Notes under the pieces: generated by a model | Databases searched by the model: none | Seen by the model: only the letters and a program-made list of their open reading frames with translations | What the model was told of the DNA's origin: nothing | Shown here: positions 786-37,856 of the stretch, one piece after another | Layout of the letters: the number at the start of each line of letters is the position of its first letter | Position numbering within the stretch: the first letter of the stretch is position 1 | Origin: Carcharhinus amblyrhynchos | Lineage: Eukaryota | NCBI GenBank assembly: GCA_965287045.1 | Contig: OZ336878.1 | Span: 110,422,001 to 110,486,000, forward strand | DNA: 64,000 nucleotides | Direction: 5' to 3' | Made by a program: the position numbers and the translations under genes

Positions 786-1190
786 GTCTCTTTGGTCTAC
801 CTACAACTTGTGTGTTCCATTGCAACTTGACAGCTTACCAATGATTCTAGGCCCTACGGTCCTGAGTGCCTCACTCCCCAATACCCCGCATCGACCAACC
901 CAACCTGACCGACTGCCCTCCAGATAATCTAATGATCAGACCTTCCCAACTACCCCGCCTATCACCCCACACTATTGGACACCCCTTCCCGCACCACCAC
1001 ATCCTGAGTGCACCTCCCCCTAAGCAACCGACATATTTTCCCATCCCCCGATCAGCCTTCCGGCCCTTCCGCCCCATTCACCCTCAGATCTAATCCCCAC
1101 TCCGACCACCCCAAATAGACCCACTTAGCAACTCACACATCCAGCCAGCCGTTCGCGCAGCCATCCACCCACTTACCCACTTACGCAATT

Positions 1191-1495
1191 ACGGCACGGT
1201 AGCACAGTGGTTAGCACTGCTGCTTCACAGCTCCAGGGTTCTGGGTTCGATTCTCGGCTCAGGTCACTGTCTGTTTGGAGTTTGTACATTTTCCTCGAGT
1301 CTGCGTGGGTTTCCAACCACAGTCCAAAGATGCGCGGGTTATGTTGATTGGCTATGCTAAGAAATTGCCCCTTAGTGTCCAGGGAGTGGAGGTTAGAGGG
1401 ATTAATATGTGGGGGCCTGGGTGGGATTGTGTTCGGTGCAGACTCGATGGGCCGAAGGGCCTCTTTCTGCACTGTAGGGATCTACGCTCTATGAT
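1191..1495 (+). mobile_element. HE1-type tRNA-derived SINE (present in copy 1 only)
   Basis: Head cggcacggtagcacagtggttagcactgctg with B-box-like ggttcgattc; tail gggccgaagggcctctttctgcactgtaggga. Confidence 0.85.
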
Positions 1496-2602
1496 CTGCT
1501 CACTCATCCGCTCACCCACCTGTTCCTCCTTCACAGTCACTGATCACCCACACGCTGAATGTCTTTGAGATCTGTAACCACTTTCCCTGAGTGCGGCAGT
1601 TGACGTTCTGAGAAGGGACAGTGCACCCTGCCCTGCCCCCTAGTGGGTGACTGCGTTGAAACATCGCTGTTGCAGTCCCGCCTGGATGGACTGCGACCGT
1701 CGCAGTCAGCAGCTATCGCCACCCTACATCAACAACTAATGATCCAAGGCCTAACTTGTTTCCGATATGATAAAAATAGCAACCGGAGGTGACGGAGGTC
1801 ATATGTTGCTCAATGTCCTACCATTGAGATCAGACAGAGGTTGATTGCAGCAGTTTCACTCAGAAGGTAATGCGCGCAGCAATATAACAATTATTCCAAC
1901 CTGGGATGTCTCCATCTAGCTCAGTCCAATGCAAAGATATCCGATTAAACTTTAACAAAGCAGGTAAATTTAAATTATTTAAATTGTTAACAGTTGGAAG
2001 GTACAGCCTGTATATGTGGTTCTTTGGAGCTCCTGGCTAATTCTTTCCTCTCAATCATCACTTTTAGAGAAAGGTCGCTTAGTCTTTGGTACATTTCTAT
2101 TCATGGAAACTTGCTGTGGTCAAATTGGCAACTCTCGTTTCCTACATTGCAATCCCAGAAGATCACTGTACTGAAAGCTCTTCGCCAAGTCTAATGGTCC
2201 GGAGGGAGGAAATGAAGTCGAGCATTATTCTTTATTTCTTTGTCCTGTATATTAAGGAAGATTTTAAGTAACCCGTCCGTCCTCTCAAGATGTAACGAAA
2301 GATTATTTTCTGAAGCCGAGGCTGAGGTTGATTTCCGCGAGAGTTATAACTGGACGTTACATTTTCTAGTGTGTTTGATAATTAATAAATGAGACCAGCT
2401 TCTCAATTGATTTCAAACAGGAAATCAGTTAGAATTCCTGCCAGTTAGTCTCCACTGTTATATTGCAGCGACCTCCAGCTATAAAAACAAATGCACTAAA
2501 TTTAACTGCTTCACCTATTTTGTTTTGTTCACAATGTTGAATGATTTGCCATGAAAAATGTTACAAAATACCACTCATTTGTCCACAGGCAACCGCGAAG
2601 CC

Positions 2603-2645
2603 ATGCTATGCAATAGAATCGTTTGGTCATTGCTGTTGTTCTCTG
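2603..2645 (+). CDS. NCR3: NKp30/NCR3-like gene A, signal peptide exon (MLCNRIVWSLLLFS-G)
   Basis: gccATG at 2603, hydrophobic leader, phase-1 donor G|gtaagt at 2645/2646, acceptor ccacag| at 2588; in frame with V exon at 5457. Confidence 0.85.
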
Positions 2646-2689
2646 GTAAGTAATCTGCACCCGGGCTCTCTCATTTGTCTATGAATAAA

Positions 2690-3130
2690 CGTATGTACAC
2701 ACACGCATACCCAGAGTTACACATCCACACAGATACTTGTTATCGAGGTTTATGCACCAATATATACATATATATCTACTTATATTAGAAACAAATATTT
2801 AAATATTTCACGCAGAAGCGTCGACACACACATCTGTAAAGATATCTATATTATTCAGATGCGTACTTCATATAGAGGTATAAATGCATACATATAAACA
2901 TATTGCACAAACACACATCCACACGCACAGATACGTACGCACACATACTCCCACATGTATGCACACACATACATGTACACAAACGAACACACACATATAT
3001 CAACATATACACACATACACTCAGGCACGCACGGACACATCCACACACTCAAACGCACACACACACACACACGGGCACATACATCAACACACTCTCCCAC
3101 ACACAGACATACACACAAGCACACACACAC
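2690..3130. repeat. Degenerate (CA)n/(CATA)n simple repeat
   Basis: Visible acacac/atacac runs; paralog at about 24000-24565. Confidence 0.9.
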
Positions 3131-3625
3131 TGAAGCCCCTCATACCTAGAACCGTTCTCGTAAATCTTTTTCGCAATGTCTTCAATCCATTCAAATCATT
3201 TTTGGGATGCCGGAACAGCGTGTGGGGAGAGATTGGGTCAGTTCGGATCACAGAAGAGTTTAGATGGAGCTTAGACAAAGGTAGGGCGATCTCATAAATA
3301 CCGATAATATTCTAGCAGGACTTGACAGGGTAGATGCAGGAAGGGATATTCCCGATGTGGGGTGTCCAGAACCATGGGTCACAGCCTAAGGACACAGAGT
3401 AAACATTTTAGGTCTGAGATGAGGAGGAAGTTCTTCAATCAGAGAGTGGTGAGCCCGTGGACTTCGCTGGCACAGAAAGCACAGATATAACTCTTGAGGC
3501 TAAAAGTAGAGGAGGGGCGGGAATAGGGTACTGAGTTGGATGATCAGCAATTAATATAATGAATGATAGGAAAGGCTGGAAGGGTTGAATTTAGTACTCC
3601 TGCCCCTATTTTATATGTTCCTATG
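3131..3625. mobile_element. CR1 LINE 3' fragment with inverted 5' piece
   Basis: About 3131-3245 is minus-strand CR1 (KRFTRxxxGMRG); about 3250-3625 is plus-strand CR1 3' end; same structure at about 24583-25098. Confidence 0.7.
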
Positions 3626-4137
3626 TCTGTAAAGTGCGATGGCCAAAATGTTATTTTACACAGGGTTTACATAACTTCTGTGCCCCATTAATAAATGCTG
3701 TCTATTTCATTAACAGCCGCCTCCTCCCCATTCTGCCACCTTCAATGACTTATGCACATACACATCGGGGTGGCTCTGTTCCTACAGAGTAGGACCCTTC
3801 ATTTTTCTCTTCTCCCTTCGTGTTTGTTCTACCAGAACGAATCACTTCACAATTCTCTGCGTTAAATTAAATCTCCCATTTGACCCCCGATTCCAGCAAA
3901 CTGTCCATATGCCATTTCGAACTCCGCCACTATCCTCATCGCCCTTCACAATGCTTTCAAATTTTTAATGCTCCACAATTTTAGAAAATGGTGCCCTGAG
4001 AATCAAGGTCATTTATCTATGCAACGTCACAGGTTTCTTATTCCTTGTCGCTCTTTGGCGATTGTGCAAAGACGGAGCTACCACTCCGCCTCGCATATAA
4101 AGCTCGGAGCAACAATGTAGCGTGGCGCGACTATTGC

Positions 4138-4180
4138 ATGTTTACCGGAGTTACCGACTCCAGAGTTACAGTCTACCAAG
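4138..4180 (+). pseudogene. Truncated relic of the V-exon 5' end with dead acceptor (AG to CG)
   Basis: atgtttaccggagttaccgactccagagttacagtc matches atgtttacag|gagttactgactctggagttacagtc at the V exon start (27326 onward). Confidence 0.7.
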
Positions 4181-4811
4181 CAAGGATAGAGAATGATAAG
4201 AATTGTTGACCCTGTTTCCCTCTTTACGATTATGTGGACATTTTAATTTGTCTTTATATGCACAAGAAGAGTCTGGCTCAAAAAAAAGGACAGGTAACCA
4301 CTAAGACTTAATATTTTCGACTCCCTGGCTGGAATGTATACCTTGAGTGTGCTTGAACCGTGCTGAAAAAGTGCCCGATTTTCCTACAATTTCGAATTCT
4401 AATTTATCACCAGTTTTTTATTTACATACGCGCCTCATTTGTAACTTAGGCTCCCAGCTAGTGTAAGGTGGCATTTGCTTTAAAGCGTAATATTCACGCT
4501 TCTGACCTGCTTTCGGGAACACTGTGGAGCCAATGAAATATTTGCAAGTAGAGGCTTCAGTTGTTCGGCAGTAGCTGCCGCCAGCGCCAGTTGAAACGTA
4601 TTGTAGTCAATTCCCATTAAATGAAGGGCAGCTTCAGCCTCGTTGCTCCTCTTTATTTGTGGTTTTGGCTGAGGGGTAGAAAGAAAAGTCTCAGAAAGCA
4701 GACCCGAAGGTAGATTGAACATCAGAAATAAAGCCGGAAAATATCACTCGGAATTCAGGCGGTACTCAATGTACATTCAGGTCGGGCAATGGCTGGGGAG
4801 AAACAGGGAGA

Positions 4812-4945
4812 CCGGGGGAGAGATTCTCCGGCCTCCAAGCAGTGTGATTCTGGCCGGCGGGTGGTGGAGCGTTGTTTACCAGCGGATGAAAAATATCCCA
4901 TTGACCATGCAGCAAGAAACCAGCAGGAGAATCCCGCCAAAGAAT
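4812..4945. mobile_element. Short MITE-like element with imperfect terminal inverted repeats
   Basis: gggggagattctcc ... ggagaatcccgcc; the paralog at about 26281-26830 carries a SINE insertion. Confidence 0.45.
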
Positions 4946-4984
4946 GGAGCGGCCAGGACCTTGTAGCCTTAAGTGTTAATTTTA

Positions 4985-5272
4985 CTTATTAATTTCAAAG
5001 AAGTCTTACATTAACACTGCAATGAAGTTACTGTGGAAAGCCCTCAGTCGCCACACTCCGACGCCTGTTCGGGTACACTGACGGAGAATTTAGCACGGCC
5101 AATGCACCCTAACCAGCACATCTTTCAGATTGTAGGAGGAAACCGGAGCACCCGGAGGAAACCCACGCAGACACGGGGACAAGGTGCAGAATCCGCACAG
5201 ACAGTGACCTAAGCCGGGAATCGAACCCGGGTCCCTAGCACTGTGAGGCAGCAGCTAACCACTGCGTCACCA
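4985..5272 (-). mobile_element. SINE with HE1-like head and alternative tail (family B)
   Basis: Reverse complement of HE1-type head plus tail gtgtggcgact..gggcttt.cacagtaacttcattgcagtgttaatgtaag. Confidence 0.8.
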
Positions 5273-5456
5273 TGTCATAAATCAATGACCCTTCTTCAGA
5301 AAACTGAAGCGTTAAAATGACCCGTTGCGCGACTGAGCTTCTTGTTGCTGTCAGCCCATTGCTGATATCCATTTCAGAGCCCAGTGTTTCTGTAACTCAA
5401 AACCAACAATGTGGAGTGGCCTGACTGTTGATGAGGGTATAAATTTATATTTACAG

Positions 5457-5810
5457 GAGTTACTGACTCTGGAGTTACAGTCAAGCAAACACCGAACTCT
5501 GTTAGTGTTAAAGAAGGCGACGCCATCCATCTGTATTGTAGCTTCAGCGAGAATGCGACCGATTCAAGAAACAGAGCTATTGGTTCAGTCACTTGGTATA
5601 AAGATTTCCGAACCTGTGAAGTCCGCAACAACTGCAGAGAATATATCGGACGTGTTCAGAATTCTGATGTATCTTCCTTCCGCGAATTCAGAAACGCATC
5701 CATATCGATAACCAATGTGACCCTGAACGACACAGGGAAGTATTACTGTGAGGTGGAGCTTGTGATCGGCGTAAAGGGGACGGGAGAAGGAACAGATGTC
5801 ACAGTAAATC
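5457..5810 (+). CDS. NCR3: NKp30/NCR3-like gene A, single VJ-type IgV domain exon
   Basis: ttacag| ... C|gtgagt, 354 nt, phase 1/1, open. VKQTP..VKEGDAIHLYC..RAIGSVTWYK..EVRN..YIGRV..ASISITNVTLNDTGKYYCEVE..GTGEGTDVTV; AIGSVTW, EVRN and GTGxGT motifs match human NKp30. Confidence 0.9.
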
Positions 5811-7792
5811 GTGAGTTTGTGTTGCACCTGTAGCCTCACATTCCTTACAAATTGACACGTAAATGGGAGCTAAGGATAATTAATCCACCCCCAGATTGAA
5901 AGTCCCCCATGCTGGGTCTTGCCCACACAAATTGAATGCTGACGGGATCGGATGCAACCCTCAGGGTTTCACTCTATCCGGGTTTACTATGTTTCTACAA
6001 TAGTGGAGAAGAATTCTGGACCAGGTATAAAGCACAGTCACAACACCATGCAATGGTTTCAGCCCCCTGTGTCTGTGCGTGCTTGTTGTACAAGCTCACC
6101 TCTAAAGTAACACAATGTGCCCCAATCCCTAGCACTTTTCCGAAACCGTATCATATTGTACTTTGAACGCTCGATCCTTAATTAATTCACTTTTAAAATT
6201 CAGAACTAGCTGCCTCCAACACACTCTGAACCAGTGGATTCCAGATCCTAACCACTCAGTGCATGAAATGAATGCTTTATTTCCCTCATGCCCTTGTTGG
6301 CAGATTACCTGAAGTCCATCTCATCTCCTTATCGACTCTATCATAATAGGGAACAGTTTAACTCTAACTACTCTGTCCAGACCCTCGTGCATTTATTGCC
6401 CATCCCATTTTTTTTATTGAATTCAAATTCCACCACTTGCCATGTTGGGATTCGAACCCTGGTCCCCAGAACATTAATTGAATTTCAGGATTAATAGTCA
6501 CCTAGATAGGCATAAGTATTAAAGCTATAAATTCATGTTGCATTCGGCAAAAACACTCAGCTGCTGTTACATAAACACGAACATAGCAAAATAGGAGCAG
6601 TAATAGTTTATCGCTGGATTGTGGATCCAACTTCACATCCCGCCTGCCTACCATAACCCCGATTCCCTTGTTAACCACGACCACATTACAGTGGAATGGG
6701 TGGAAGTGCACAAACTTCATTTCTAGAATAATCCTAACGTAAAAAAGTGACAGAAAAGTAAACTTGGTTGGATATCCTTTCTGCATTATTTACTGTCACT
6801 TGACGACAATACTTGCCACTAGGGAATCATCATTCCAAGAATTTGAGCAAGACAAGTCAGAATAGAAAGGAGGATTCCAGTTAGGCGAGGATTCACCAGA
6901 CCATTCTCTTTCTATATGTCCGATATCAAGATACGGTATTGGCGAAATAGGCAAACAAATTATTGGAACACACTTTCCCCTCCACCAGCAGAAATTAAAA
7001 CAAGGCAGGAACATAGATTGTCATTTGTTGTCGCAACGAAACTGAAGACATTCCAGCCATTTTTATAGTTGGGACATTCATTGTGTACAGTTGGGTGCTG
7101 AGTCAGAACTCGAGATATCCCCAGGGTTGGCAAAATCCAGCAATAAATATTCAGGCTCCAGCTACTGGAAAATAAGTAATTTATGTGTACGCCAAACAAA
7201 TTCGAGAAAGTGGTGAGGGGGGGGGGGGGGCCGGGGGGGCGAGAGGGGCGGTGGAGGGGTACTGGAAAAGAAATAATTTATTTGTATGCCAAACAAATTC
7301 AAGAAAGAGGTGGGGAGGGGGTGCGAGAGGGGTAGTGGAGGGGTGGGGTAGTGCGGGCGCGGGGAGAGAGAGAGTTGTGCAGAACATTGTACAACAGCTC
7401 ATTTCACCATCCCCCTAACACTCCACTAAACGATCCGCGAGGAAATCTTGTGTTCACCGAACTGGCACGTTCTATCGGCTTTATCTGCTCACCATCTCTC
7501 TGCACCAGCGCTCTTGTCTCTCACCCTCAGTTAGTTTGCTTTCAACTAAAATGTACGACCAGCAACGGCCATCACCCAAACACAAATAGGGATGGTGGCT
7601 GACACATTATTTTGACTTTTCTGCTCATTTGCTCGGTGATCTGTGCACCGAGGTTTGAAATTCATCTTGCGGTTTCTCAACTGAAGCCCAGAATACCTGC
7701 ACCACCTCCACCCCCCTCCTCCTCCCCACTTCCCATCAAAAACACAGATGGGAAGAAAAAACATTTTTTTTGTTGCTGTTTTCTCTCTAAAG

Positions 7793-7930
7793 ATCATGTT
7801 GATTCTGAAGTAACAACACCTCCAAGTCAATGGAACACTTATCTGCTTATTTTCTCAGTGTTGGCTTTTGTGGTACTTGCTGTCATCCTGACTAAACTAA
7901 TTTATATTCTGCAATGCTGTAGACCACCAG
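7793..7930 (+). CDS. NCR3: Gene A stalk/transmembrane exon (HHVDSEVTTPPSQWNTYLLIFSVLAFVVLAVILTKLIYILQCCRPP-G)
   Basis: ttctctctaaag| acceptor, CAG|gtaatt donor, 138 nt, phase 1/1, in frame with V exon, hydrophobic span. Confidence 0.85.
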
Positions 7931-8129
7931 GTAATTATTCTGAATTCAGCCTATTTTACAACAAGGCGTGAATGACTATATGACTGAAGAATAGCATTGC
8001 TGATCTATGGCTTACATTGTTATACACCTACAATGTCTCTGAAATAATTAGCATGATTAATAATTACAGTAATACCAGCATTTCCATGAATATTCTTATT
8101 TTCCAAAGGGAGTTTTTTTAAAGTTAACA

Positions 8130-8370
8130 GCTAATTTATTAGCCACAAGTAAGGCTCCCATTAACACTGCAATAAAGTTACTGCGAAATTCCCCTAGTCG
8201 TCACAGCCCGGTTCATGTTCGGGTCAATGCACTTAACCAGCACGTCTTTCAGAATGTGGGAGGAAACCCGCAGGGAGACTCCACACAGTCACCCAAGCTG
8301 GGAATCGAACTTGGGTCCCTGGCGCGGTGAAGCAGCGGTGCTAACCACTGTGCTACCATGCCGCCCATGC
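8130..8370 (-). mobile_element. SINE family B
   Basis: Same head and tail motifs as 4985-5272. Confidence 0.75.
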
Positions 8371-8779
8371 GTTAAATTTAGAAAATTATTTATAACCTGA
8401 CATAACTTGAAGCTGCAAATATCATGGCTCGTGTCATAGTTGTATATTAATTATATAAGATAAACTGGACAGTCAGCCACTCGGCTCAACCAATCCATGC
8501 TGCTCCTTATGCTCCATTCGAACCTCCTCCTAAATTTTTTAAAAATCTAAATATATGATTATAACCATTCGTATTCGCTTCCCTCATTTGTTTGCCTGCA
8601 TTACCCTTACGGATGTACTTTGCTTTAATATCCTGTGATATTCTAACCATCATTAAAAACGATGGACAACAATTTTGTGTCAAGTGTGAAAAACAGCGTC
8701 GTGCCTGATGCTATGAACTCCCTCCCGACATCCTTTCAATAAATAACTTAATTGGGTGAGTTGTTTTTTTCTGAAACAT

Positions 8780-9750
8780 GCCATGTGCACACAGATACAT
8801 ACACGTGTACATATATGCACACACAACCAGAGACACACACACAGACACACATATAATCATACACGCACATATACACAATGGTGACACGCACAGATGCATA
8901 CTAACCAGCACACAGAAGTACACACAGACACGACACACAATAGACACATGCAGGCACATTCGTATAGCTACATAAACACACAGGCACACATGGACACAGG
9001 CACAATCACACACTTCGGAACACATACTGATGCAGACACTGGCAGACATACATAGATATCTACAGACCCACACACAGCAATACATAAAGACATGCACACA
9101 ACACACACAGACACCTATATGGACACATGTATACACACACACAGACATAGACGCACATGCAAACACATTATGTGCACACGCACATATGCACACATATAAA
9201 CGCACACATGCAAACACAAACAGACAAACACAGAAATACATACTGACACATGCACACAACACGCACACATAGACACATACATGTATACACGCACACAATC
9301 ACACATTTATGCACACACTTACATGCAGGTGTAGATGCAATCACACACATACAGACATAGACGTGCACACATATATACAGACCCACACACTGAAATATAT
9401 ACAGACACGCACACACATGCACAGATACATATATATATACATGTGTACATACAGAGAGACAGACATACAGAGAATCACTCACTTTTGCACATCCATTGAC
9501 AACTGGACACATACAGACACTGACAGACACATACTGATACATACAGATCCACAAACTTAAATACATTCAGAGACGTACAAACAACACATAGACACACACA
9601 TGCATACACGCACTCACACACACACACAAACACTCACTTATGCAGACATACATACAATCACACACATATAGACACGAAGAGATATACAAATACATAGAGA
9701 CCCACACACTGAAATACATACAGACACAGAAATACATACAAAGACACATA
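8780..9750. repeat. Long degenerate CA/CATA/CAGA simple repeat
   Basis: Low-complexity acacac tract near the duplication endpoint. Confidence 0.9.
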
Positions 9751-10143
9751 AATGAAAGAATAAGGAAATTCTTGCACAGCGCAAGATATAACACTCCATC
9801 TCCGAAAACCAGCCACTCTGAAATCTATAGGTTTATAATACACAGCCTTACATTCACTGAACTCTCGTTTCCCCGTGGCTTTATCTACTGGCCATCTTTA
9901 GCCCGTGTCTTTGTGCTCAGTTGACACTTTTTGAACTGAAACTTACGCCTAACTAAAGCGTGCGACAGCGCAGGCTAGCACGCAAAACATTTGTTTCCTT
10001 TATCTGCTCGTCATCTTCGTGCTGTGGCACTCGGCACCGAAGCTGGCGGAAGGTTTCTCAAATAAAGCGTAGAGTTAACATCAAAAGCAGAGTGGAGGAA
10101 AGAAAAAACTGTTGTTTCTTTTTTGTTTGTTTTCTCTCTGTAG

Positions 10144-10611
10144 GTCGCTTTAATTCGGAAGGGACATCGCTTGCAAATCAAGGGAACGTTTATCGGCTCA
10201 TAGCGTCAGCGTTGGTGCTAGTATTGCTGGCATTCATCTTTCGGACGGCTCGGTGGCACAGTGGTTAACACGGCTGCCTTACAGCTCCAGCGACCGGGGT
10301 TCGTATTCCAGTCTTGGGCGACCGTCTGTAGAGTTTGCACGTTCTCCCCGTATCTGCGTGGGTTTCCTCCGGGTGCGCCGGTTTCCTCCCAGACTCCAAA
10401 GACGTGTGGATTACATGGATTGGCCATGCTAAATTGACCCTTAGTATCAACGGGATTAAGCATGGTAAATACTTGGGATTATGGGTATAGAGCCTGGGTG
10501 GGATTGTTGTTAGTGCAGGGTCGATGGGCTGAATGGCCTTCTTCTGCACTGTAGGGTTCAATAAATTCTATTCTATTTTCAAATTTCCTCCTCACTGCTG
10601 CAGACCTCTCG
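10144..10611 (+). pseudogene. Divergent paralogous TM exon (RFNSEGTSLANQGNVYRLIASALVLVLLAFIF..HCCRPL) interrupted by a SINE; donor mutated
   Basis: tttctctctgtag| acceptor; upstream intron resembles 7470-7790; after the SINE, tgctgcagacctctcg|ctaattat matches tgctgtagaccaccag|gtaattat. Confidence 0.8.
10243..10576 (+). mobile_element. Full-length HE1-type SINE inserted in the pseudo-TM exon
   Basis: Complete head-to-tail SINE motifs. Confidence 0.9.
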
Positions 10612-11244
10612 CTAATTATACTAAATTCAACTTGATTACTAAGTAGAGTAAGTTACTGCAGACCTATATCTTCCCTGCAGTGTGTTGAATACCGTATATG
10701 TAAAAGGACACCGCGATTAGTTTAACTCACGATGCAATGTATCTAGAGCGACACTAAATCAAAATGATGTTAATCACAATAATGACAGCGTTGGCTACGA
10801 TTATTTTGTTTAACAAATGGAACTGAACAAGGCCATTGTTAGAACTTTGCATATTTTGAAATCAGAAATACCATGGTTTGTACCATAGATGTGTTTTGAT
10901 TACCGCAGAATCAATTAATGGAAAGACCGATATAGTCACATCTCCTGATTCGGTTCCCAGCTTGGGTCACTGCCTTAGCAGAGTATGCATGTTCTCCCAT
11001 TGTCTGTGTAGATTTGCTTCAGGTTTCCTTTCACACTGCGGGTTAGGTGGATTGGCCATGTTAAATGCGCAGGGTAACTATTATAGGGCGGGGGAGTGAC
11101 CCTCGGTAGAGTGCTCTTTCACAGGGTCGCTGCAGACTTGATGGGGAATGATTGGGATTCTGTGCACTGTGTTCGGCGAAAGGGGCGTGAAGAAAGCAAA
11201 GAGACTGGGCAATCGGCCACCTGCCATGCTGTGTCCTATGATTT

Positions 11245-11655
11245 AGAAAAATGAGGGGAGATCTCATTGAGACGTATAAGATGATGAATGGGATGGATAG
11301 GATAGAGGTGGAGAGACTCTTCCCGCTCAGAAAAGACAGTAGGACTAGGGGGCACAGCCTCAAGATAAAGGGGAGGCGGTTTAGAACGGAGTTGAGGAGG
11401 AACTTCTTCACTCAAAGGGTGGTGAATCTCTGGAATTCTCTGCCCGTTGAAGTGGTGGAGGCTGCCTCGCTAAATATTTTTAAGAAGCGGGTTGATGGGT
11501 TCTTGATAAGAGAGGGGATTAATGGTTATGGGGAGAGGGCGGGAAAGTGGAACTGAGCCACAACAGATCAGCCATGATCTTATTGAATGGCGGGGCAGGC
11601 TCGAAGGGCTAGATGGCCTACTCCTGCTCCTATTTCTTATGTTCTTATGTTCTAT
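11245..11655 (+). mobile_element. Young CR1/HER1 LINE 3' end
   Basis: ORF 11251-11556 RGDLIETYK..TRGHSLKI..FFTQRVVNLWNSLP; nearly identical to 366-785. Confidence 0.92.
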
Positions 11656-12834
11656 TCTGTGACAAAGCCAAGTACTGTCCCCACATGCTCCACGCCATGA
11701 GAGAGAACGTGACCAAATTCTCTCGCAAAATAATTTTCATAGAAATCCATAATCGCTTCAATTGACCTGACGTGGATAGATTTGGGAAGCTTAGGGAGAA
11801 AGCAGCCAATGTTGCCGAGTCCAGGAAGAAACGTGAATCTTATGACGAGATATAGCTTGCGTTTACGTAGCTCTTTCCACCGTGTAAAACAACCTAATGT
11901 AAATCATTATTAAGCAACAGTTGACACTACAGTGAGATATTCCAGCAGCTTATCCAAGAGCTGGGATGAACTGATAGACTCTCAGGACAGTCTTAAAGGA
12001 GAAATGAGAGGACGTGAGGCGGAAACGGAAAGAAAAGAGAAAGGGAAATTGTGTTATAACTAACTATGTTTCAGTTAGTTACAAGAATAAAAAAAATGAC
12101 TGCTACCCACCAATGTGCGCCACAGTTGTCACATATTGAATGATTGATTTAATGTCTTCGCTCCATTGAATTACAGTCTGGTCATCAAAATTGAAGAAGG
12201 AACGCTTACCTAATTGTGCATCCGAGTAAACCTCAGAATGTTTCACTACTTTATAGCATTTTTGATCAATTTGCCCCAGGCTTTGCGGATCACAGTGTTT
12301 TTGTCACATCATATATAAGGTCTCAGGCAATGGTGCGCTGAGAAACTAAATGGCCGGAATTCTCCCATCCCGTCCGCCACTAGAATTTTAGCGGGCGCGT
12401 TGCGGAGCATGTGAAACGCCACTGACGGTCGGGTGGGAATTTTTGGCTTTAAGACCAGCGCGGTCGGAAAATTCCCAGTTCAAAATGAAAGTCTGTGTTA
12501 AGGAAAGAGCACATTTTCTCCTAAAGTTTTCACTTTTATTAATCACTGAAATACGCCATTTTGGACTATTACTGTTCTTCCAGCTTGAAAATATGCAATC
12601 AATTTAAAATGCGTATAGGTCAAAGAATTAAACAAGGAATCCAGGCTGTAAATGCGGTATGTGATAAAACTCAATGAAAACCATCGGTTTTGATTTGCAC
12701 TGTGGTTAATGTGGCTATTTTTGAGGAAGAAAGATGCAAAGCTAAGGTTCACGTTAACAAAATCAGCATGGTGAATATAATTGGAATAGAGGAAAACAGA
12801 AGTAAGATAGAGCGACTCGTTTAACATTTGGGAT

Positions 12835-14668: not shown

Positions 14669-14905
14669 GGCGGAGTCATGTTGGAAAACTATGATTTATG
14701 AGAAGCTGAACCTCAGTCAAACAGCCACCCTCCTGATGCGATTGTGTGCAAGACAACGAGGTCATGCGTACAAAGCAAAAACACATAGCGAGAGGAGAGG
14801 TGTCACTCCCGGACAGCAACGGAGAATCTCAATTGCAGACATTTTATAAATTGTAACCGGATCTAGAGGCGGCTATTAGCATCAACAGAAATCGCTTTGA
14901 TGCTT
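14669..14905 (+). pseudogene. Decayed paralog of the ITIM cytoplasmic exon (TMIYEKLNLS..SLPDSNGES), frameshifted and internally deleted
   Basis: ttgcag| acceptor; aligns by eye with 41712-41867 and then jumps to 41992-42060. Confidence 0.75.
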
Positions 14906-15979
14906 AGCACCCATTTTGATAAGGATTGGGTTGGTTTATTTGTTCTGCCATCCACAGTTTAAAAGTTTAAAGTTCGGATTGGACATTAATAAATTGCTAC
15001 TTGAAAGTTCTGCATATTTAAACATAATAAGTATTCTTGCCCTTGATTGCGGAGGTGTGCTGAAAGTAATTTTTGTATCAGTAATTTGAGTGATTGATTC
15101 AGCGCTGCAATGATTCCTTCTCACCAAGCTCAAAGCGCCGTACATTGGGGATGGACACTGATTTATTGTTGTCCTTTTCTGAACCAAACCTGTTACATTT
15201 CGCTGTATTTGCGTCCCCCAATCGGCAGTCTTCTAATTTCATGCATTTTTTCGAAGTGCGATTTTGTTAACCAAACTTTAAAATCAATTATTTGTCATGC
15301 GTTCTCGAGATAAGGGCATAACAAGAGATGTGGTTCAGACGCCCCCTGCAGTCCCCTTCATCATCGAATACGATCACTCCGGATGTTTTGTCAATTTCCT
15401 GTCATACCTACATCGTTTAATTCCATTAGGGCAGTCTTGTCCAACATTTGCGCCTTGAAAAGGGCCACATTTTTATTTATCCCCCTTCAAGGCGCGGAGC
15501 CAATGAACAAATTTCGGGATGAAAAGGCTCCGTCCAACTTTGAGCGGATTTCTTTTTTAAATTGCGGTGTTGAGAAAAAGGAACAATTGCTGAACAAAAA
15601 TAAAGCAACATTAAACAGTAAGCTGTTAAGGAGTGTATTCAATAAAAATTGCCGGAGTGTGAGAGGGTTAGAGTGTGTGTGCCAGGCTCTATCAGTGTAA
15701 GGGTGCGCTCAGTAATCCACTGGGAGTAAATGCCTGTATGTGTTGGTGTGTGCTGGGAAACTGAGTGCGAATAAGGCGGACACAGTCACTCTCAATCCTG
15801 CACACCCGCAATTGCTCAGGCACAGACAGACAGAGACACACAAAGTCAATTTCTCTCACTTCCTCACCACACCCATCACCCCGCCCTTACCGCCCGCCCC
15901 CAACACCCCCACCCTCCCCACCCAAGACCATCTGTTCCGCCTGTCGCACAGACAATTCCTCGGTAAATTGTTCAATCTT

Positions 15980-23915: not shown

Positions 23916-23958
23916 ATGCTATGCAATCGAATCGTTTGGTCATTGTTGTTGCTCTCTG
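23916..23958 (+). CDS. NCR3: NKp30/NCR3-like gene B, signal peptide exon (MLCNRIVWSLLLLS-G)
   Basis: ccacag| acceptor at 23901, gccATG, G|gtaagt donor, phase 1. Confidence 0.85.
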
Positions 23959-25587
23959 GTAAGTAATCTGCACCCGGGCTCTCTCATGTGTCTATTAATA
24001 AGCATATATACACACACGCATACACACAGCATTACACATCCACACAGATACTTGTTATCGAGGTTTATATACCCATATATGCGTGTATTATATATCTACT
24101 TATATTAGAAACAAACATTTAAATATTTCACGCAGAGACATCGATACACACATCTGTAAATATATCATCTATATTATTCAGATACGTATTTCACATAGAG
24201 GTATAAATGCATATGCATAAACATATTGCACACACACACACTTCCACACGCACAGATACGCACGCACACATACTCCCACATGCATGCACACATATGTGCA
24301 CAGACATGCATGTACACAAAAGAACACGCACACATACCAACATATATATATACACACACACACATACTCAGGCACACACGGACTCATCCATACACTCAAA
24401 CACATACACACTCACACGGGCACATACACTCAAACGCACACAACACACGGGTACATACATCAACACTCTCTCACACACACAGGCATACACACAAACACAC
24501 ACACACAAACACACACACACACACACATGCACACAGACAGATATAGACACACACGCACACGCATAGGAATTACTGGCAAATAACTGAAGCTCCTCATCCC
24601 TGGAACCATTCTCGTGAATCTTTTTCGCAATTTGTTCAATCCATCCAAATCAGTTTTGGGATGCGGGAACAGCGTGTGGGGACATAATGGGTCGGTTCGG
24701 ATCATTAGATGGAGCTTAGACAAATATGGGGTGATCTCATAAATACCGATAATTTCTAACAAGACTAGACAGGGTAAATGCATTAAGGGATATTCCCGAT
24801 AGTAGGATGTCCAGAACCAGGAGTCACAGCCTAAGGATACACGGTTAACAGTTTAAGTTTGCGATGAGGAGAAAGTTCTTCATTCAGAGAGTGGTGAGCC
24901 TGTGGACTTCGCTAGCACAGAAAGCAGTTGACTGCAAAACATCGTATGTTTTCAAGAAGGAAGTAGATATAGCTCTTGAGCTAAATGTAGAGGAGAGGCG
25001 GGAATAGGGTACTGAGTTGGATGATCATCAATTAATATAATGAAAGGCTGGAAGGGCTGTATTTCATACTCCTGCCCCTATTTTATATGTTCCTATGTTT
25101 GTAAAGTGTGATGGCCAAAATATTATTTTATACAGGGTCGACATAACCTCTGTGCCCCATTAATAAATGCTGTATACTTCATTAACAGCCGCCTCCTCCC
25201 CATTCCGCCACCTTCAACGATTTATGCACGTACAATCGGGGTGACTCTTTATTTTTCTCTTATCTCTTCGTGTTTTTTCTACCAAAACGAATCACTTCAC
25301 AGCTCTCTGCATTAAATCAAATCCCCCATTTGACCCCCGGTTCCAGCAAACTGTCCATATGCCATTTCGAACTCCTCCACTATCCTCATCGCCCTTCACA
25401 ATGCCGTCAAAATTTTTATGCTTCACAACTTTAGAAAATTGTGCCCTGTGAATCAAGGTCATTGATACATGTAATATCATAGGTTTCTTATTCCTTGTCG
25501 CTCTTTGGCGATTGTGCAAAGGCGGAGTTGCCACCCCTCCTCGCGTATAAAGCTCGGAGCAACAATGTAGCGTGGCGCGACTATTGC

Positions 25588-25630
25588 ATGTTTACCGGAG
25601 TTACCGACTCTAGAGTTACAGTCTACCAAG
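25588..25630 (+). pseudogene. Second copy of the truncated V-exon 5' relic
   Basis: atgtttaccggagttaccgactctagagttacagtc. Confidence 0.7.
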
Positions 25631-26384
25631 CAAGGATAGAGAATGATAAGAATTGTTGACCCTGTTTCCCTCTTTACGATTACATGGACATTTTAATTTG
25701 CCTTTACATGCACAAGAGGAGTCTGGCTAAAAAAAAAGACAGGTAACCACTAAGATTTAATATTTTCGACTCACTGGATAGAGTGAAAACCTGCAGTGTG
25801 CTTGACCGCTTGCTGAAAAAGTGCCCGATTTTCCTACAATTTGGATTTTAATTTATCACCAGTTTTTTTTATATACACGCCTAGTTGGTAACTTAGCTCC
25901 CCCCCCACCCCGCCCACCCCTAGCTAGTGTAAGATAGCATTTGCACTAAAGCGTAATATTCACGCTTCTGACCTGCTTTCGGGAACACAGTGGAGCCAAT
26001 GAAATATTTGCAAGCAAAGACTTCCATTGTTCTGCAGCAGTTGCCGCCAGCGCCAGATAAAATGTATTGTAGTCAATTCCCGTTAAATGAAGGGCAGCTT
26101 CAGCCTCGTTGCTCCTCTTCATTTGTGGTTTAGGCTGAGGGGTAGAAAGAAAAGTCTCAGAAAGCAGACTCTAAGATAGATTGCACATCAGAAATAAAGC
26201 TGGAAAATATCATTCGGAATTCAGGCAGTACTCAGTGTACACTCAGGGCGAGCAAAGGTTGGCGAGAAACAGGGAGACACGGCGAGAGATTCTCCGCTCT
26301 CCAAGCCGTGTGATTCCGGCCGGCGGGTGGTGGCGCGTTGTTTGCCAGCGGCGTGATTCACTGGTGCCACCGCTATCAACGGGG

Positions 26385-26757
26385 AGGTGGAGGCTTATCG
26401 GTATTTTCTCTAGGCTATTAATCCAGAAACTCAGCCAATGTTGTGGGGACCCGGGTGCGAATCCCGCCAAATTCCAAATTCAAATTTCACTGGTGGAATT
26501 TGACTGCAACACAAAATTCCTGGAATTAAGAATCTATTGATGAACATGAAACCATTGTTGATTGTCGGAAAAACCCATCTGGTTCACCAATGTCCTTTAG
26601 GAAAGCAAATCTGCCCGTTCTTACCTGGTCTGCCCTGCATGTGACTTCAAAGCCATGGCAATGCAGCTGACTCTCAACTACCCTCGGGCAGCTTGGGATG
26701 GACAATAAATGCGGCTCCAGCCAGCCATGACTGTGTCCCATGAACGAAAGAAAAAAT
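26385..26757 (+). mobile_element. SINE family C inserted into the MITE-like element (copy 2 only)
   Basis: Flanks ..agcgg / aaaaat.tcccattgac are contiguous in copy 1 at about 4885. Confidence 0.8.
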
Positions 26758-26879
26758 GTCCCATTGACGTCACCCCATGCTAGCAAGAAACCAGCAGGAG
26801 AATCCCGACAGTGTGAATGGCCAAAGAATTGCGGCCAGGATCTTTTAATCTTTAATATTAATTTTACTCATTAATCTCA

Positions 26880-27160
26880 AAGTAGTCTTAATTTAACACT
26901 GCAATGAAGTTACTGTGAAAAACCCTCAGTCGTCACACTCCGGCGCCTGTTCGGGTATACTGAGAGAGAATTCAACATTAGCAATGCACCCTAACCAGCA
27001 CATCTTTCGGACTGTAGGAGGAAACGAGAGCACCCGGAGGAAACCCACACAGACAAGGGGAGAAGGTGCAGACCCCGCACAGAGAGTGACCCAAGCCGGG
27101 AATCGAACCCGGGTCCCTAGCAGTGTGAGGCAGCAATGCTAACCACTGTGTCACCATGTC
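26880..27160 (-). mobile_element. SINE family B (paralog of 4985-5272)
   Basis: Same position within the duplicated block. Confidence 0.8.
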
Positions 27161-27335
27161 ATAAATCGATGACCCTTCTTCAGAAAACTGAAGCGTTAAA
27201 ATGACCCGTTGCGCGACTGAACTGCTTGTTGCTGTTAGCTGTGATATCCATTTCAGAGCCCAGTGTTTCTGTAACTCAAAACCAACAATGTGAAGTGGCC
27301 TGACTGTTAATGAGGATATAAATTTATGTTTACAG

Positions 27336-27689
27336 GAGTTACTGACTCTGGAGTTACAGTCAAGCAGACACCGAACTCTGTTAGTGTTAAAGAAGGCGAC
27401 ACCATCCACCTGTATTGTAGCTTCAGCGAGATTGCGACCGATTCAAGAAACGGAGCTATTGGTTCAGCCACTTGGTATAAAGATTTCCGAACCTGTGAAG
27501 TCTGCCACAACTGCACAGAATATATCGGACGTGTTCAGAATTCTGATGTATCTTCCTTCCGCGAATTCAGAAACGCATCCATATCAATAACCAATGTGAC
27601 CCTGAACGACACAGGGAAGTATTACTGTGAGGTGGAGCTTGTGTTCGGCGTAAAGGGGACCGGAGAAGGAACAGATGTCACAGTAAATC
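27336..27689 (+). CDS. NCR3: NKp30/NCR3-like gene B, VJ-type IgV exon
   Basis: ttacag| ... C|gtgagt, 354 nt, open (ORF 27326-27712), canonical Cys/Trp/DxGxYYC/GxGT. Confidence 0.9.
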
Positions 27690-29374
27690 GTGAGTTTGTG
27701 TTGCACCTGTAGCCTCACATTCTTTCCAAATTGACACGTAAATGGGAACTAGGGATAATTAATCCACCCGCAGATTGAAAGTCCCCCATGCTGGGTCTTG
27801 CCCACACAAATTGAATGCTGACGAGATCGGATGCAATCCTCGGGATTTCACTCTGTCCGGGTTTGCTATGTTTCTACAATAGTGGAGGAGAATTCTGGAC
27901 CAGGTATAAAGCACAGTCACAACACCATACAATGGTTTCAGCCCCCTGTGTCTGTGCATGCTTGTTGTGCAAGCTCATTTCTGGAGCAACACAATGTGCC
28001 CCAATCCCTGGCACTTTTCTTAAACAGTATCACATTCTATTTTGAACGTTAGATCCTTATTTACTTCTCTGTTAAAACCCAGAACTAGTTATCTCCAACA
28101 CAGTCTGAACGAGTGGATTCCAGATCCTAACCACTCAGTGCGTGAAATGAATGCTTTATCTCCCTCGTGCCCTTGTTGGCGGATCACCTGAAGTCCATCT
28201 CATCTCCTTCTCGACACTATTGTAATAGTTTGACTCCAACTAGTCTGCCCAGACCCTCGTGATTGTGCACGCCTCTATGATATCTCTTTTTAACCTCTCG
28301 CCTTTGAGGAGAAACAGGCCTAGAGGGTTCTCCAATCTATCTACAAGCTGAAGTCTCTCAAACCTGGAAATATTTTGATAAATCGTTTCTGCATACTCTC
28401 CAAAGCTTTAACATCGTTTTGGAAAGTTTGGCAGCCAGAATTGGGAACAATGCCCCAGTTGAGGCCGAACTGGCGTTTAAGTTTTTTAAAAAATCGTCAT
28501 AGCTTCCTTACTTCTGCATTCAGTGCCTCCGTTCATAAATTCTTAAATGCAGTATGCTTGCAAACCACTTTCTCAACGCACCCTGGTAACTCCATCGATT
28601 TCCGCACATATACCCTCATAGGGGATTTTCACAATAACTTCATTGCAGTGTTAATGTAAGCCTACTTGTGGCACTAATATGTTTTAAAAATTCATTCGTG
28701 GGGCATGGGTGTCTCTGGCCAGGCCAGCATTTATTGCCCGCCCCTAGTTGCCATTGAGAAGATGGTGTTGGTCTGCCTCTTGAATGGCTGCAGTCCATGA
28801 GAGCAGACTGCAGTCCATGGCATTAACTTAACTTTAACTCATATATTTCCTGTCCCTCCATGTTTCCCGCCCTCCTGACAATTCAGGGATGCATCTCAAC
28901 TGTCCTTGGGGAACTTTCAACTTCAAGTGAGTTGCCCTATTGAATACTGCACTTTACAATTTTTTTGCTACCATATCCAGACACTTTGTTAAGTCATGTT
29001 TAATTCCGACTTTGACATCATTGTCTTCCTTATTAATAACACATACAAAACATTAAGTTGTTCCTCAGCCATTCCTTATACTTCCATGCGTAATTTTTAG
29101 TCCCTAATCGACCTGATACTTGCCCTAACCACCGGTTTCTACTAAAGTGCTTGTAGACTTTTGGATTCCTTCATGTTAGCTTCCAATCACTCCTTGTGGT
29201 CTCCCTTCGCCTCTTTGGTTTCCTTTTCATTCCCTCTATGTTCCTATTTTCAATCTGCTTCTTATTTGTATTGATAATAAATATAGAATAGACAATCAAC
29301 CTTAATTTACTCTCTTCCTCATCATGCAGCGAGTGCTAATGTAGTGTACCCTGATTTTTACCCTTGTGGAACTT

Positions 29375-29770
29375 TATTTTTATTCATTCGTTGGACCTGG
29401 GCCTCGCTGCTTGGTCAGCATTTATTGCCCATCCCAAGTTGCCCTTGGGAAGGTGGTGGTGAACTGCCCTGTTGAAACGCAGAATGGCTTGCTCGGCCAT
29501 TTCAGAGGGAAGTTGAGAGTCAACCACGTTGCTGTGGCTCTGGAGTCACATATTGGCCAGAACAGGCAAGGACGGCAGATTTCCTCCCCCAAAGAATATT
29601 AGTGAACCAGATGGGGTTTTCCAACAATCGACAATGGTTTCATGGTCATCAGTGCATTCTTAATTGCTTTTTTTTATTGAATTCAAATTCCACCACCTGC
29701 TATGGTGGAATTCGAACCCTGGTCCCCAGTACAATAACTGGGTTTCAGGATTAATAGTCATGTAGGTAGG
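29375..29770 (-). mobile_element. SINE family C
   Basis: cagcatttattgcccatccc ... ggaattcgaaccc in reverse. Confidence 0.75.
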
Positions 29771-30935
29771 CCTAGGTATTAAAGTTACAAGTTAATGTTG
29801 CATTCGGCAAAAATACCCAGCTTCTGTTACATAAACACGAAATGGGAACAGTAACAGGTTATCATTGGATTGTGGATCCAACTTCACATCCCGCCTGCCC
29901 ACCATAATCCTGATTCCCTTGTTAACCACGACTAATTACAGCGGAATGGGTGAAACTGTACGAACTTCATTTCTAGAATAATCCTAATATTAAAAAAAGT
30001 GACAGAAAAGTAAACTTGATTTGGGCGATTCTTATTTTGCATTATTTACTGTCACGTGACGGCAATGCTTGCCATTAGGGAATCATCATTCCAAGAATTT
30101 GAACGAGACAAGTCAGAATAGAAAGGAGGATTTCAGTTAGGCGAGGATTCACCAGACCATTTTCTTTCTATATGTCCGATATCAAGATACCGTATTGGCG
30201 AAATAGGCAAACAAAATATTGGAACACACTTTCCTTTCCACCAGCAGAAATTAAAACAAAGCAGCAAGAACATAGATTGTCATTTGCTGTAACAACGAAG
30301 CTGAAGACATTCCAGCCATTTTTATATTTGGGATATTCAGTATGCCCAGCTGGCTGCTGAGTCAGAACTCGAAATATCTCCAGGGTTGGCAAAACACAGC
30401 AATAAGAATTCAGCCTGCAGCAAATGGAAAATAAATAATTTATTTGTACGCCCAGAAATACGAGAGAGGGGTGTGGGGGCGGTTGGAGAGGTGGAAGGGG
30501 GGAAGGGATACAGTTGTGCAGAACATTGTGCATCTGTTCACTTCACATCCCCCTACAATCAATCAAACAATCTCCGAGGAAATCTTGTATTCGTGGAACT
30601 GGTGCGTTCTAAAGGCTTTATCTGCTCACTATCTGTCTGCCGTTCGGCGCCAATGCTCTTGGTTCTCACCCTAAGTTACTTTGCTTTCAACTAAAATGTA
30701 CGACCAGCAATGGTTATCACCCAAACACAAATGGGGATGGTGGTTGACACGTTATTTTGACTTTTCTGCTCATTAGCTTGGGGCTCTGTGCATCGAGGTG
30801 CTGAAACTCACCTGCGGTTTTTCAACTGAAGTATGAAGCTCAGAATAGCTCCCCCACCCCCACACCCACCCCCCATCAAAAACACAGTAGCGGATGGAAA
30901 GAAAGACATGGTTTACTGTTGTTTGCTTTCTAAAG

Positions 30936-31068
30936 GTCATGTTGATTCTGAAGTGACAACACCGCCAAGCCAATGGAACACATATCTGCTTATTTTCTCC
31001 GTGCTGGCTTTTGTGGCACTCGTTCTCATCCTAAGTAATTTATATTCTGCAATGCAGGGGACCACCAG
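30936..31068 (+). CDS. NCR3: Gene B stalk/TM exon with a 5-bp deletion; donor at 31068 (frameshifted) or cryptic in-frame donor at 31034
   Basis: ctttctaaag| acceptor; RHVDSEVTTPPSQWNTYLLIFSVLAFVALVLIL; 133 nt versus 138 nt in gene A. Confidence 0.85.
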
Positions 31069-31299
31069 GTAATTATTCTGAATTCAGTCTATTTTACAAT
31101 GTGGAATGAGAACTTAACACCTATTTCTTTCCTGCAAGGCATGAATGACTATATGTCTGAAGAATAGCATGGCTGATCTATGGCTTACATTGTTATAAAC
31201 CTACAGTGTCTCCACAATAATCAGCATGATTGATAATTGCAGTAATACCAGCATTTCCATGAATATTCTTATATTGCAAAAGGAATTTTTAGTTAACTT

Positions 31300-31560
31300 A
31301 TTAGTCTCAAGTAAGGCTTACATCAACACTGTAATGAAATTACTGTGAAATTCTCCTATTCGTCACAGTCCAACGCCTGTTCAGGTCAATGCAGCTAACC
31401 ACCAAGTCTTTCAGAATGTGGGAGGAAGCCTGAACACCGGAAGGAAACCCGCGCAGATACAGGGAGCAATCCACGTAGACAGTCACCGAAGCTGGGAATC
31501 GAACTTGAGCCCCTGGCGCTGTGAAGCAGCAGTGCTGAGCATTGTGCTACCATGCCGCCC
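31300..31560 (-). mobile_element. SINE family B (paralog of 8130-8370)
   Basis: Same position within the duplicated block. Confidence 0.75.
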
Positions 31561-32099
31561 ACTACTTACGTTAAATTTAGAAAATTATTTATAACTTCGC
31601 ATAACTTGAAGCTGCAAATATCATGGCCTGTGTCATAGGTAGATATTAATTATGATGGATATACGGGAGAGTCAGGCCACTCGGCTTAACCAATCCATGC
31701 CGCTCCCATTCAAACTTTCTCCTAACATTTTAAAAATTTAAATATATCATTATAACCATTTATACCTTCTTCCCTCATTTGCTTGCCTGCATTCCCTTAC
31801 ATGTGTCTATACTATTTGCACTAACCAGCCCTCTGTGGTAACAAGTCCCATATTTTTACCAGCTTTTGGGGAAGAGATTGCTTCTGAATTGCCTATCGGA
31901 TTTCTTTGCCACCATATTATATTGATGGATTCTATTTATATACTTCCCCACAAGAGGAATCGTTCTTTTTATATCCACTCCATCAAACCTACCATAATAT
32001 TTGAAGTCCTGTTTTCGGTAACCATTCAAACATTATTTTCCGAGAGAGGTGGGAAGAAGCCTACCGATCCCTACCATATACCTTACCGAAGCCTACCAC

Positions 32100-33087
32100 A
32101 TACATAGACGATCTGGAGGAGGGGGCTGAGTGTAGGGTAACAAAGTTTGCTGATGACACAAAGGTGAGTGGAAAAGCGAATTGCGTGGAGGACGCGGAAA
32201 GTCTGCAGAGAGATTTGGATAGGCTGAGTGAGTGAGCGAGGACCTGGCAGATGGAGTATAACGTTAGCAAATGTGAGGTTATCCACTTTGGAAGAAATAA
32301 TAGTAGGATGGAATATTATTTAAATGGTGAAAGGCTGCAGCATGCTACTGTGTGGAGGGACCTGGGGGTCCTTGTGCACGAATCACAAAAACCCAGTCTG
32401 CAGGCGCAGCAGGTGATCAAGAAGGCGAATGGAATGTTGGCCTTTATAGCGAGGGGCGTAGAATATAAAAACAGGGAGGTCTTGCTGCAACTGTACAAGG
32501 CACTGGTGAGGCCGCAAATGGAGCACTGTCTGCAGTTTTGGTCCCCCTAATTGTGAAAGGATATATTGGCCTTGGAGGGAGTACAGAGAAGGTTCACCAG
32601 GCTGATACCAGAGATGAGGGGGTTTGCTTATGAGCAGAGATTGAATAGATTGGGTCTGTACTCGTTGGAGTTTAGAAGGCCGAGGGGGGCTCTTGTAGAG
32701 ACTTACAAGATAATGAAGGGGCTAGATAGGTTAGAGGCAGAGAGATTCTTTCCACTGAGAAAGGAAACCAGAACCAGAGGGCACAGCCTCAACATAAGGG
32801 AGGGGGGGGGGTGCAGTTTAGAACAGAGTTGAGGAAGAACTTCTTCTCTCAGAGGGTGGTGAATCTCTGGAATTCTCTGCCCATTGAAGTGGTGGAGGCT
32901 ACCTCGTTGATTATATTTAAGCCTCGGGTAGATAGATTTCTGATCGATAAGAGAATTAAGGGTTATGGGGAGCAGGTGGGTAAGTGGAACTGATCCACTT
33001 CAAATCAGCCATGATCTTATTGAATGGCGGGGCAGGCTCGAAGGGCTAAATGGCCTACTCCTGCTCCTATTTCTTATGTTCTTATGA
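32100..33087 (+). mobile_element. CR1/HER1 LINE 3' ~1 kb, disabled RT
   Basis: KFADDTK motif at about 32142, ORFs 32251-32550, 32566-32832, 32811-32993, TTCTTATG tail. Confidence 0.93.
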
Positions 33088-34076: not shown

Positions 34077-34152
34077 GCATCCGGAATAAGGAGGTGAACT
34101 AGCATCCGGAATAAGGTAGATGAACAGCATCCGGAATAAGGTAGGTGAACTT
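34077..34152 (+). repeat. Three tandem ~25-bp copies of gcatccggaataagg(t)aggtgaac at the LINE 5' junction
   Basis: Direct reading; the third copy continues into the LINE endonuclease region. Confidence 0.85.
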
Positions 34153-36930: not shown

Positions 36931-37447
36931 CGAAGCTCTAAGAGCAGGAGGGTCTCTAAATGTTTAGTCCTGGTGACCAACAAGGGCGAATAAAATAAAG
37001 TTGACGCTATTGTCAATACTTCAGGCAAAAAGTAATAACGAAACACACGTGAACATGTTAGGCGTTGCTTGCAATATACTAATTTGAAAAAGGATGGTTT
37101 TAAAGTAGGAAGAGGAGCAGAGTGGAGTAGAGATGGAACGGGGAACAACAGGAGAATGAAAAGTACGAGGCTGTCCGAACTGCAGCAATGAAAAATCGTC
37201 ACTGCGGCACTACATTGCATTAGATGTTATTTTCAGAATTCATAAAATTACAGCGTGGTGATCGAAGTTGCAAAATATTAAAAACTTATGTTGCTCAACT
37301 TAGAAAACCTCGTTAGTTTAAATTTAAATAATTGCTCCAAAGGCCATCTTACTCTTAAATGATCCAAATTTTAAAAAAAACACATTACAAGATTAATAAC
37401 GGTGAGTTAGAAATAATATGATTTGTAAAATTAAAAATTAAACTGAC

Positions 37448-37742: not shown

Positions 37743-37856
37743 CAATGAGGAAATTTATTTCGGAATGAAAGTTTGAATTTACTACTGGCTGTCATATTCG
37801 GATTGCGAGTTATGTTCCAGTTTTAAAATCTCTAATCTATTTAATACATTTCATAG

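Follow-up and report, generated by a model that had tools for sequence, protein, structure and literature searches.

The question raised by this locus is whether a transmembrane (TM) exon that carries an arginine and is interrupted by a SINE belonged, or still belongs, to an activating receptor, or is the remnant of a dead gene. The window, by which we mean the whole stretch of 64 kb that was analyzed, contains on its + strand a cluster of NCR3/NKp30-like genes in a shark-like genome, and the exon in question, here called X (10144-10611), lies between the first two of them. Our analysis indicates that X is most likely a real, well-defined and ordinary half-gene relic, to which one base change probably gave the look of an activating receptor by chance. 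The genes around X are the following.

Gene A, 2603-7930, + strand: leader (2603-2645), V exon (5457-5810) and uncharged TM exon (7793-7930).
Gene B, 23916-41966, + strand: leader, V exon (27336-27689), TM exon (30936-31068), small exon (37857-37888) and tail exon (41712-41966).
Gene C, 48869-50985, + strand: leader, V exon (49420-49773) and TM exon from 50857 with a mid-membrane Lys; the activating-type comparator.

Genes A, B and C each encode an NKp30-like V-type Ig domain in a single exon, giving three V exons in the window (at 5457, 27336 and 49420), and X is without one. The V exon of gene A (5457-5810) matches the Pfam V-set family (E 1.8e-12), its top four PDB matches are all NCR3, with human NKp30 at E 6e-12, and its closest single-V database relative is the horn shark protein XP_067865303.1, annotated as NCR3-like and 66% identical. 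A word-based protein search with this domain returned no matches although relatives exist, the search being insensitive here, and the horn shark protein, compared with the ESM Atlas, retrieved general V-set clusters only. The V domain of gene C is 65% identical to nurse shark NCR3 QTT61904.1, which its TM segment with the mid-membrane Lys also resembles. The donor of gene C after 50985 is weak (GAG/GTTCTC), read-through at this point giving a short-tailed protein of 200 aa, and its V-TM intron contains an assembly gap (50605-50746).

Gene B has an intact tail exon with three tyrosine motifs, LVYAKL, VVYAPL and TVYGRV, which we take, from the consensus, to be ITIM- and ITSM-like. A 5-nt deletion in its TM exon (30936-31068) shifts the frame at the old donor and leads to a 177-aa product; splicing from a second donor, TAA/GTAATT after 31034, would keep the frame into the small exon and ITIM tail and give 260 aa, and through this new donor gene B may have remained a complete inhibitory receptor. 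Gene A is a partial duplicate of gene B, extending from about 823 to 8610, in which the TM exon is intact, the V exon ends at 5810 in phase 1, and tail exons of its own are absent. Unspliced after the TM exon, it reads 191 aa with a short tail and an in-frame stop, followed by an AATAAA at 8171 that lies within an antisense SINE, gene B having AATGAA there. With its uncharged TM segment and a short tail obtained by read-through, gene A (2603-8200) could encode a non-signalling or decoy form. Intron 1 of A and intron 1 of B each contain a short duplicate of the first part of the V exon (4109-4183 and 25559-25633).

The segments that make up X, and the junction that precedes it, are given here in order.

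Junction of A-type and X-type sequence, 8610-9772, no strand assigned: mostly a CA-rich repeat tract (about 8790-9760), without a V exon.
End of the V-TM intron of X, 9772-10143, + strand: homologous to 7375-7792 in A and to about 30584-30935 in B, at a p-distance of 0.33-0.36.
5' half of the TM exon of X, 10144-10242, + strand: stalk, the residues N-V-Y-R and a 15-residue hydrophobic core; no stops and no indels relative to A and B.
SINE in X, 10243-10576, + strand: near-full-length, 334 nt, in sense orientation; supplies RTARWHSG and the stop at 10266-10268.
3' half of the TM exon of X, 10577-10611, + strand: out of frame with the 5' half after removal of the SINE, and followed by the dead donor CTAATT.
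Small cytoplasmic exon of X, 12619-12656, + strand: 38 nt, AG/GT intact, in frame; homolog of 37857-37888 in B (z=18.7, nhmmer E 1.4e-6).
Decayed tail exon of X, 14669-14915, + strand: homology spread over all three frames (z=10.6, nhmmer E 1.4e-10).

X is paralogous to the NCR3/NKp30-like TM exons of genes A and B. The preliminary description had recognized such a divergent paralog from 9960 on; the paralogy is real, but the homologous stretch extends from about 9772 to about 10950, introns on both sides included. Compared with 100 shuffles each, the upstream intron together with the 5' part of the exon aligns at z=21.8 to A and z=13.1 to B, and the downstream part at z=13.9 to B and z=6.2 to A, so that both flanks align to gene A far above the shuffled level. 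The frame from 10143 reads GRFNSEGTSLANQGNVYRLIASALVLVLLAFIF and then RTARWHSG*. Within it the codon at 10194-10196 is CGG (Arg), where A (7843) and B (30986) have CTG (Leu), which bears out the exchange originally described. A PDB search with the X peptide gave no matches at E 10. The acceptor, tag/G at 10143/10144, is intact, with 17 pyrimidines in the 20 upstream positions and a strength at least that of A's acceptor, and the donor is dead, TCG/CTAATT (10612) standing where A and B read CAG/GTAATT; both points had been described correctly. A cryptic donor, AGA/GTAAGT, follows 10647. It had also been proposed that the SINE splits the exon from an end reading HCCRPL. The split is seen, but removal of the SINE gives no in-frame exon: the SINE-free exon has 134 nt, or 130 nt minus one TTTC, compared with 138 nt in A, and the HCCRPL end of X therefore carries further indels.

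The small and tail exons of X were found by searching with the tails of gene B and of the horn shark protein. They differ from those of B by 0.28-0.33, the introns of X differing by 0.33-0.36 and the A/B pairs by 0.08-0.15 (seven segments); because this divergence is at the level of the X introns, unlike that between A and B, the exons belong to X and not to A. In the tail exon, MIYEKL matches LVYAKL of gene B, out of frame with the upstream exons, and the later motifs are lost. X is thus homologous in its TM, small and tail exons to the ITIM-bearing NCR3-like members, while a translatable ITIM tail is precluded by the stop at 10266-10268, the dead donor and a tail in three frames. Judged from these homologies, X is a descendant of the ITIM-tailed NCR3-like subfamily and not a working member of it. 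Neither a leader nor a V exon of X was found in the 64-kb window, and the A-X and X-B intervals likewise yielded no V exon. The A/B homology ends near 8610, and the V exon of A scores at null level against the gap at 8610-9772. A decayed leader candidate at about 8708-8755 was rejected (z=-0.2 against the leader region of A). Intron 4 of X against intron 4 of B, and one part of intron 3 (z=1.7), did not rise above shuffles.

The direction of the Arg change was read from an alignment of 12 database proteins with A, B and X, the proteins comprising nine of the 11 relatives found by search plus P0006, P0152 and P0058; P0157, an isoform, and P0028 were left out. Leu stands at the site in all ten long-tailed elasmobranch proteins (eight genes by isoform grouping), as in A and B, and the remaining two of the 12 are of the Lys type and not comparable at the site. 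The CGG of X is one base from CTG. Since all long-tailed relatives and both A and B have Leu, the Arg is derived, and was gained on the X branch from an uncharged, tyrosine-tailed ancestor. The preliminary description had seen in X the remnant of an older, ancestrally activating Arg-TM paralog that was knocked out by the SINE, and the NxxR context of the Arg and a split of X that predates the A/B split would agree with this; such an ancestry is contradicted, however, by the tail exon homologous to ITIM tails, by the Leu of the ten long-tailed relatives, and by the activating-type relatives of elasmobranchs, which use Lys and another TM sequence. The activating-type shark and ray genes of the family, including gene C, carry a mid-TM Lys in that different sequence, and the arrangement seen in gene C, P0028 and P0063, a mid-TM Lys in a GVKL-like stretch with a short tail, is absent from X. 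An ancestrally activating X appears largely refuted already, and we regard it as very improbable.

The Arg completes an exact N-x-x-R (N-V-Y-R) at the start of the TM segment of X. The NxxR motif is linked to FcR-gamma association in the available parts of three sources (PMC2413239, PMC6557307, PMC4536121), and this context would be a sharper point for FcR-gamma pairing than the N-proximal position of the Arg that was first put forward. NxxR occurs in two of the 63 fetched proteins that include both a V end and a TM segment, namely P0065 and P0163, both short-tailed frog proteins (one annotated as NCR3-like) that are unlike both the shark and ray Lys type and the mammalian LLLRAG type; none of the fetched elasmobranch relatives has it. 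In drift simulations, with 40,000 runs each from the codons of A or B at d 0.13 and 0.22, NxxR arose with a frequency of 0.019-0.025, a Lys or Arg anywhere in the TM region with 0.14-0.34, a stop-free frame with a clean core with 0.15-0.34, and NxxR together with both with 0.004-0.007. The chance of no indels in the 99-nt 5' half is 0.18-0.31.

These frequencies bear on the possibility that X made a real switch from an inhibitory to an activating receptor, in which the TM segment gained NxxR and the SINE severed the ITIM tail, contributing in its place basic stop-transfer residues, a stop codon and a poly(A) signal. Decay of the donor and tail, no longer in use, would have followed; the copy in the window would be an orphaned 3' half, with a complete one perhaps situated farther upstream, outside the window. 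That NxxR and an intact 5' half should coincide by chance is improbable, which argues for such a past switch, but the amino-acid change of this half is near the neutral rate, as set out below. Gain of TM charge together with a tail stop is the route taken by activating KIR (PMC2213150, available part), yet X is without the N-terminal DYT and the C-terminal acidic residues of LRC-type NxxR segments described in the available part of PMC6557307. NxxR with a short tail exists in the frog proteins, though in no elasmobranch relative fetched. Decay of tail and donor would be expected here too, and if X and B had recombined by unequal crossover, an entire X gene should remain upstream, whereas within the window no V exon of X's own is seen. 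We consider a past switch possible, but rather unlikely.

The rate of change was examined in the 5' half of the TM exon of X, where pN is 0.28 against A and 0.31 against B, near intron level, compared with 0.043 between A and B. The Nei-Gojobori dN/dS of 0.40 against A and 0.23 against B is measured along a path that includes the constrained A/B branch, by a method that ignores transition bias. The half carries about a dozen amino-acid changes; it is identical to A at 14 of 31 residues and to horn shark XP_067865303.1 at 19 of 31, a figure of 21 for A and 22 for B. The dead tail of X is identical to that of the horn shark at 24 of 49 residues and the live tail of B at 17 of 49, a comparison that rests, with that of the TM half, on 31 and 49 residues and is biased in favor of X by two tail blocks that were first found with the horn shark query. 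In a two-rate estimate with a functional and a neutral part, the neutral component comes to about 0.38 per residue; by simulation this corresponds to d ~0.18, which would agree with the age of the SINE and fits a neutral relic.

The SINE itself is flanked by TTTC repeats (10239-10242 and 10577-10580), which may represent a target duplication of 4 bp. Matching sequence recurs at 28 further places in the window, and neither ARAGORN nor Rfam recognized the element. It differs from the majority of nine other near-full copies at 48 of 297 sites, the other copies differing by 0.15-0.25, and its distance from other copies, d ~0.18, is an upper bound with subfamilies pooled. X split from A/B at about 0.44 pairwise and A from B at 0.08-0.15, so that the insertion would fall early on the X branch, well before the arrival of gene A. 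Another SINE, which A and B share in the intron that follows their TM exons (8119-8368 and 31284-31562), is absent at the matching place in X and thus entered after X had split off. LINE-like fragments at 366-784, 11242-11653 and 61996-62116 are 94-98% alike and much younger than the SINE copies, one of them lying inside an intron of X and another interrupting the sequence upstream of A. RTARWHSG* is the product of the ordinary head (5' sequence) of the SINE in the frame of X, so the peptide and stop are no sign of selection. The tail of the SINE contains an AATAAA at 10560-10565, the only one among 14 SINE tails examined. The window holds 53 AATAAA on the + strand (0.83 per kb), and the chance of one within 380 nt is 0.27. 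The AATAAA of gene A arose from AATGAA, by the same route as that of the X SINE.

A third possibility is that gene A now uses X. The junctions 5810>10144 and 7930>10144, which the preliminary description had named, are both in frame, and the former leads through RTARWHSG to the TAA at 10266-10268. Gene A would then employ X as an alternative terminal exon (5810>10144), and the predicted 173-aa receptor, with the near-identical V domain of B, the Arg-bearing NxxR TM segment and an 8-residue tail from the SINE, would be the activating partner of inhibitory B. The frame, the strong acceptor, the AATAAA at 10560 and the dead donor, which favors terminal use, all agree with this, but the intact TM exon of A would have to be skipped, its inclusion giving a predicted product of 219 aa with two TM segments, and the in-frame stop after that exon and the AATAAA at 8171 both lie upstream of X. 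The cryptic donor after 10647 would, moreover, render the stop premature. Gene A has no ITIM tail of its own, and by way of the small exon and tail of X it reads 201 aa with an early stop and without an ITIM. Between A and B, 339 of 351 nt of the V exon agree (96.6%; 5459-5809 and 27338-27688), the neighboring introns being 85-92% identical, a likeness above intron level that possibly reflects gene conversion or constraint and that resembles paired receptors with homogenized ligand domains (PMC3210942, available part). The SINE (d ~0.18), however, is much older than the arrival of A (0.08-0.15 pairwise), and the exon had to survive in between. We judge present use improbable. The compound case, in which the SINE completed a switch from inhibitory to activating and gene A now splices its B-like V domain onto X, making a paired activating receptor, is likewise improbable in our estimate.

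We hold it fairly probable, in preference, that X is the 3' half (TM, small and tail exons) of an old ITIM-lineage NCR3/NKp30-like paralog, broken by the SINE and neutral thereafter. The SINE would have entered the TM exon early, placed a stop before the tail and abolished function; decay of the donor, the tail and the 3' half of the TM exon would have followed, with the Leu-to-Arg exchange as one of about a dozen changes by drift. Much later, an out-of-register unequal crossover or a partial duplication would have put a copy of the leader, V and TM exons of B, now gene A, before X, the join falling in the CA-rich tract. This reading draws on X's own small and tail exons downstream, on the Leu of relatives with Arg one base away, on a window in which X has neither V nor leader, on a pN near intron level and on a neutral decay that matches the SINE distance. 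From these data, and from the intact TM exon of gene A, an AATAAA that chance would supply with a frequency of 0.27 and a gene C that already supplies the Lys-TM type, we infer that X has no present use. Against a relic stand the low drift frequencies of NxxR, alone and with an open frame and clean core, the 99 nt without indels, the strength of the acceptor, the sole AATAAA among the SINE tails, a dN/dS below 1, and a distance from the horn shark that is not clearly greater for X than for A. The NxxR and the intact half are much likelier under a switch, yet SINE insertions into coding exons mostly kill genes, and this prior, with the neutral-looking rate, places the relic first.

As a relic, X would exemplify the ordinary turnover of genes, by birth and death, within a cluster of immune receptors, and its use would lie mainly in the annotation of the locus, where A has lost its ITIM tail and X is half a gene. 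If either switch reading were true, a cartilaginous-fish activating receptor would have been made from an inhibitory one, with the FcR-gamma motif gained independently and a new end supplied by a retroelement; if reuse by A were true, one cluster would make a paired activating receptor from a recycled exon.

Among known systems, the nearest are the elasmobranch NCR3/NKp30-like proteins with an uncharged TM segment and a tyrosine-motif tail (horn shark XP_067865303.1, bamboo shark XP_043533738.1), with which X shares the sequence and phase of the TM exon, the small exon and the tail exon; unlike these long-tailed relatives, X has Arg for Leu, the SINE and a dead donor, its tail is frameshifted, and the window contains no V exon belonging to it. 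In the literature covered on NKp30/NCR3 in sharks and on NxxR, which did not include the main shark NCR3 papers, nothing was found on this exon, and PMC10751288 and PMC12227049, in the parts available, mention NKp30/NCR3 only as MHC-linked VJ genes. Mammalian NKp30 (NCR3) is the best PDB match of the V domain of the locus, and its TM Arg binds CD3-zeta or FcR-gamma (PMC6514059, available part). In the three mammalian NCR3 fetched, this Arg is embedded in LLLRAG or LFLRAA, a different context that lacks an Asn at -3, so the Arg of X is not the same inherited residue.

The receptors NKp46/NCR1, LILRA2, PIR-A, GPVI, OSCAR, Fc-alpha-R and Xenopus XFL have N-x-x-R at the start of the hydrophobic segment in common with X, which, if expressed, would also share their short tail (PMC2413239, PMC6557307, PMC4536121, in the parts available). 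In X the motif came from one base change in an uncharged TM segment, and the likeness is in the motif only: X reads ANQG before and RTAR after it, where the LRC type has DYT and acidic C-terminal residues (PMC6557307, available part). HE1, the label given to the SINE in the preliminary description, is a tRNA-derived SINE of zebrafish and elasmobranchs with a tRNA-derived head and a 402-bp consensus, compared with 334 nt in X, and such SINEs supply parts of exons in zebrafish (PMC2911107, available part); the element in X lies inside an existing coding exon. Activating KIR and Ly49 arose from inhibitory homologues by gain of TM charge and loss of the tail through an early stop, in a paired-type cluster, as in X; according to the available part of PMC2213150, the two switch changes in these receptors were substitutions on which both methods agreed, followed by purifying selection, whereas X carries its dozen or so amino-acid changes and takes its stop from a SINE.
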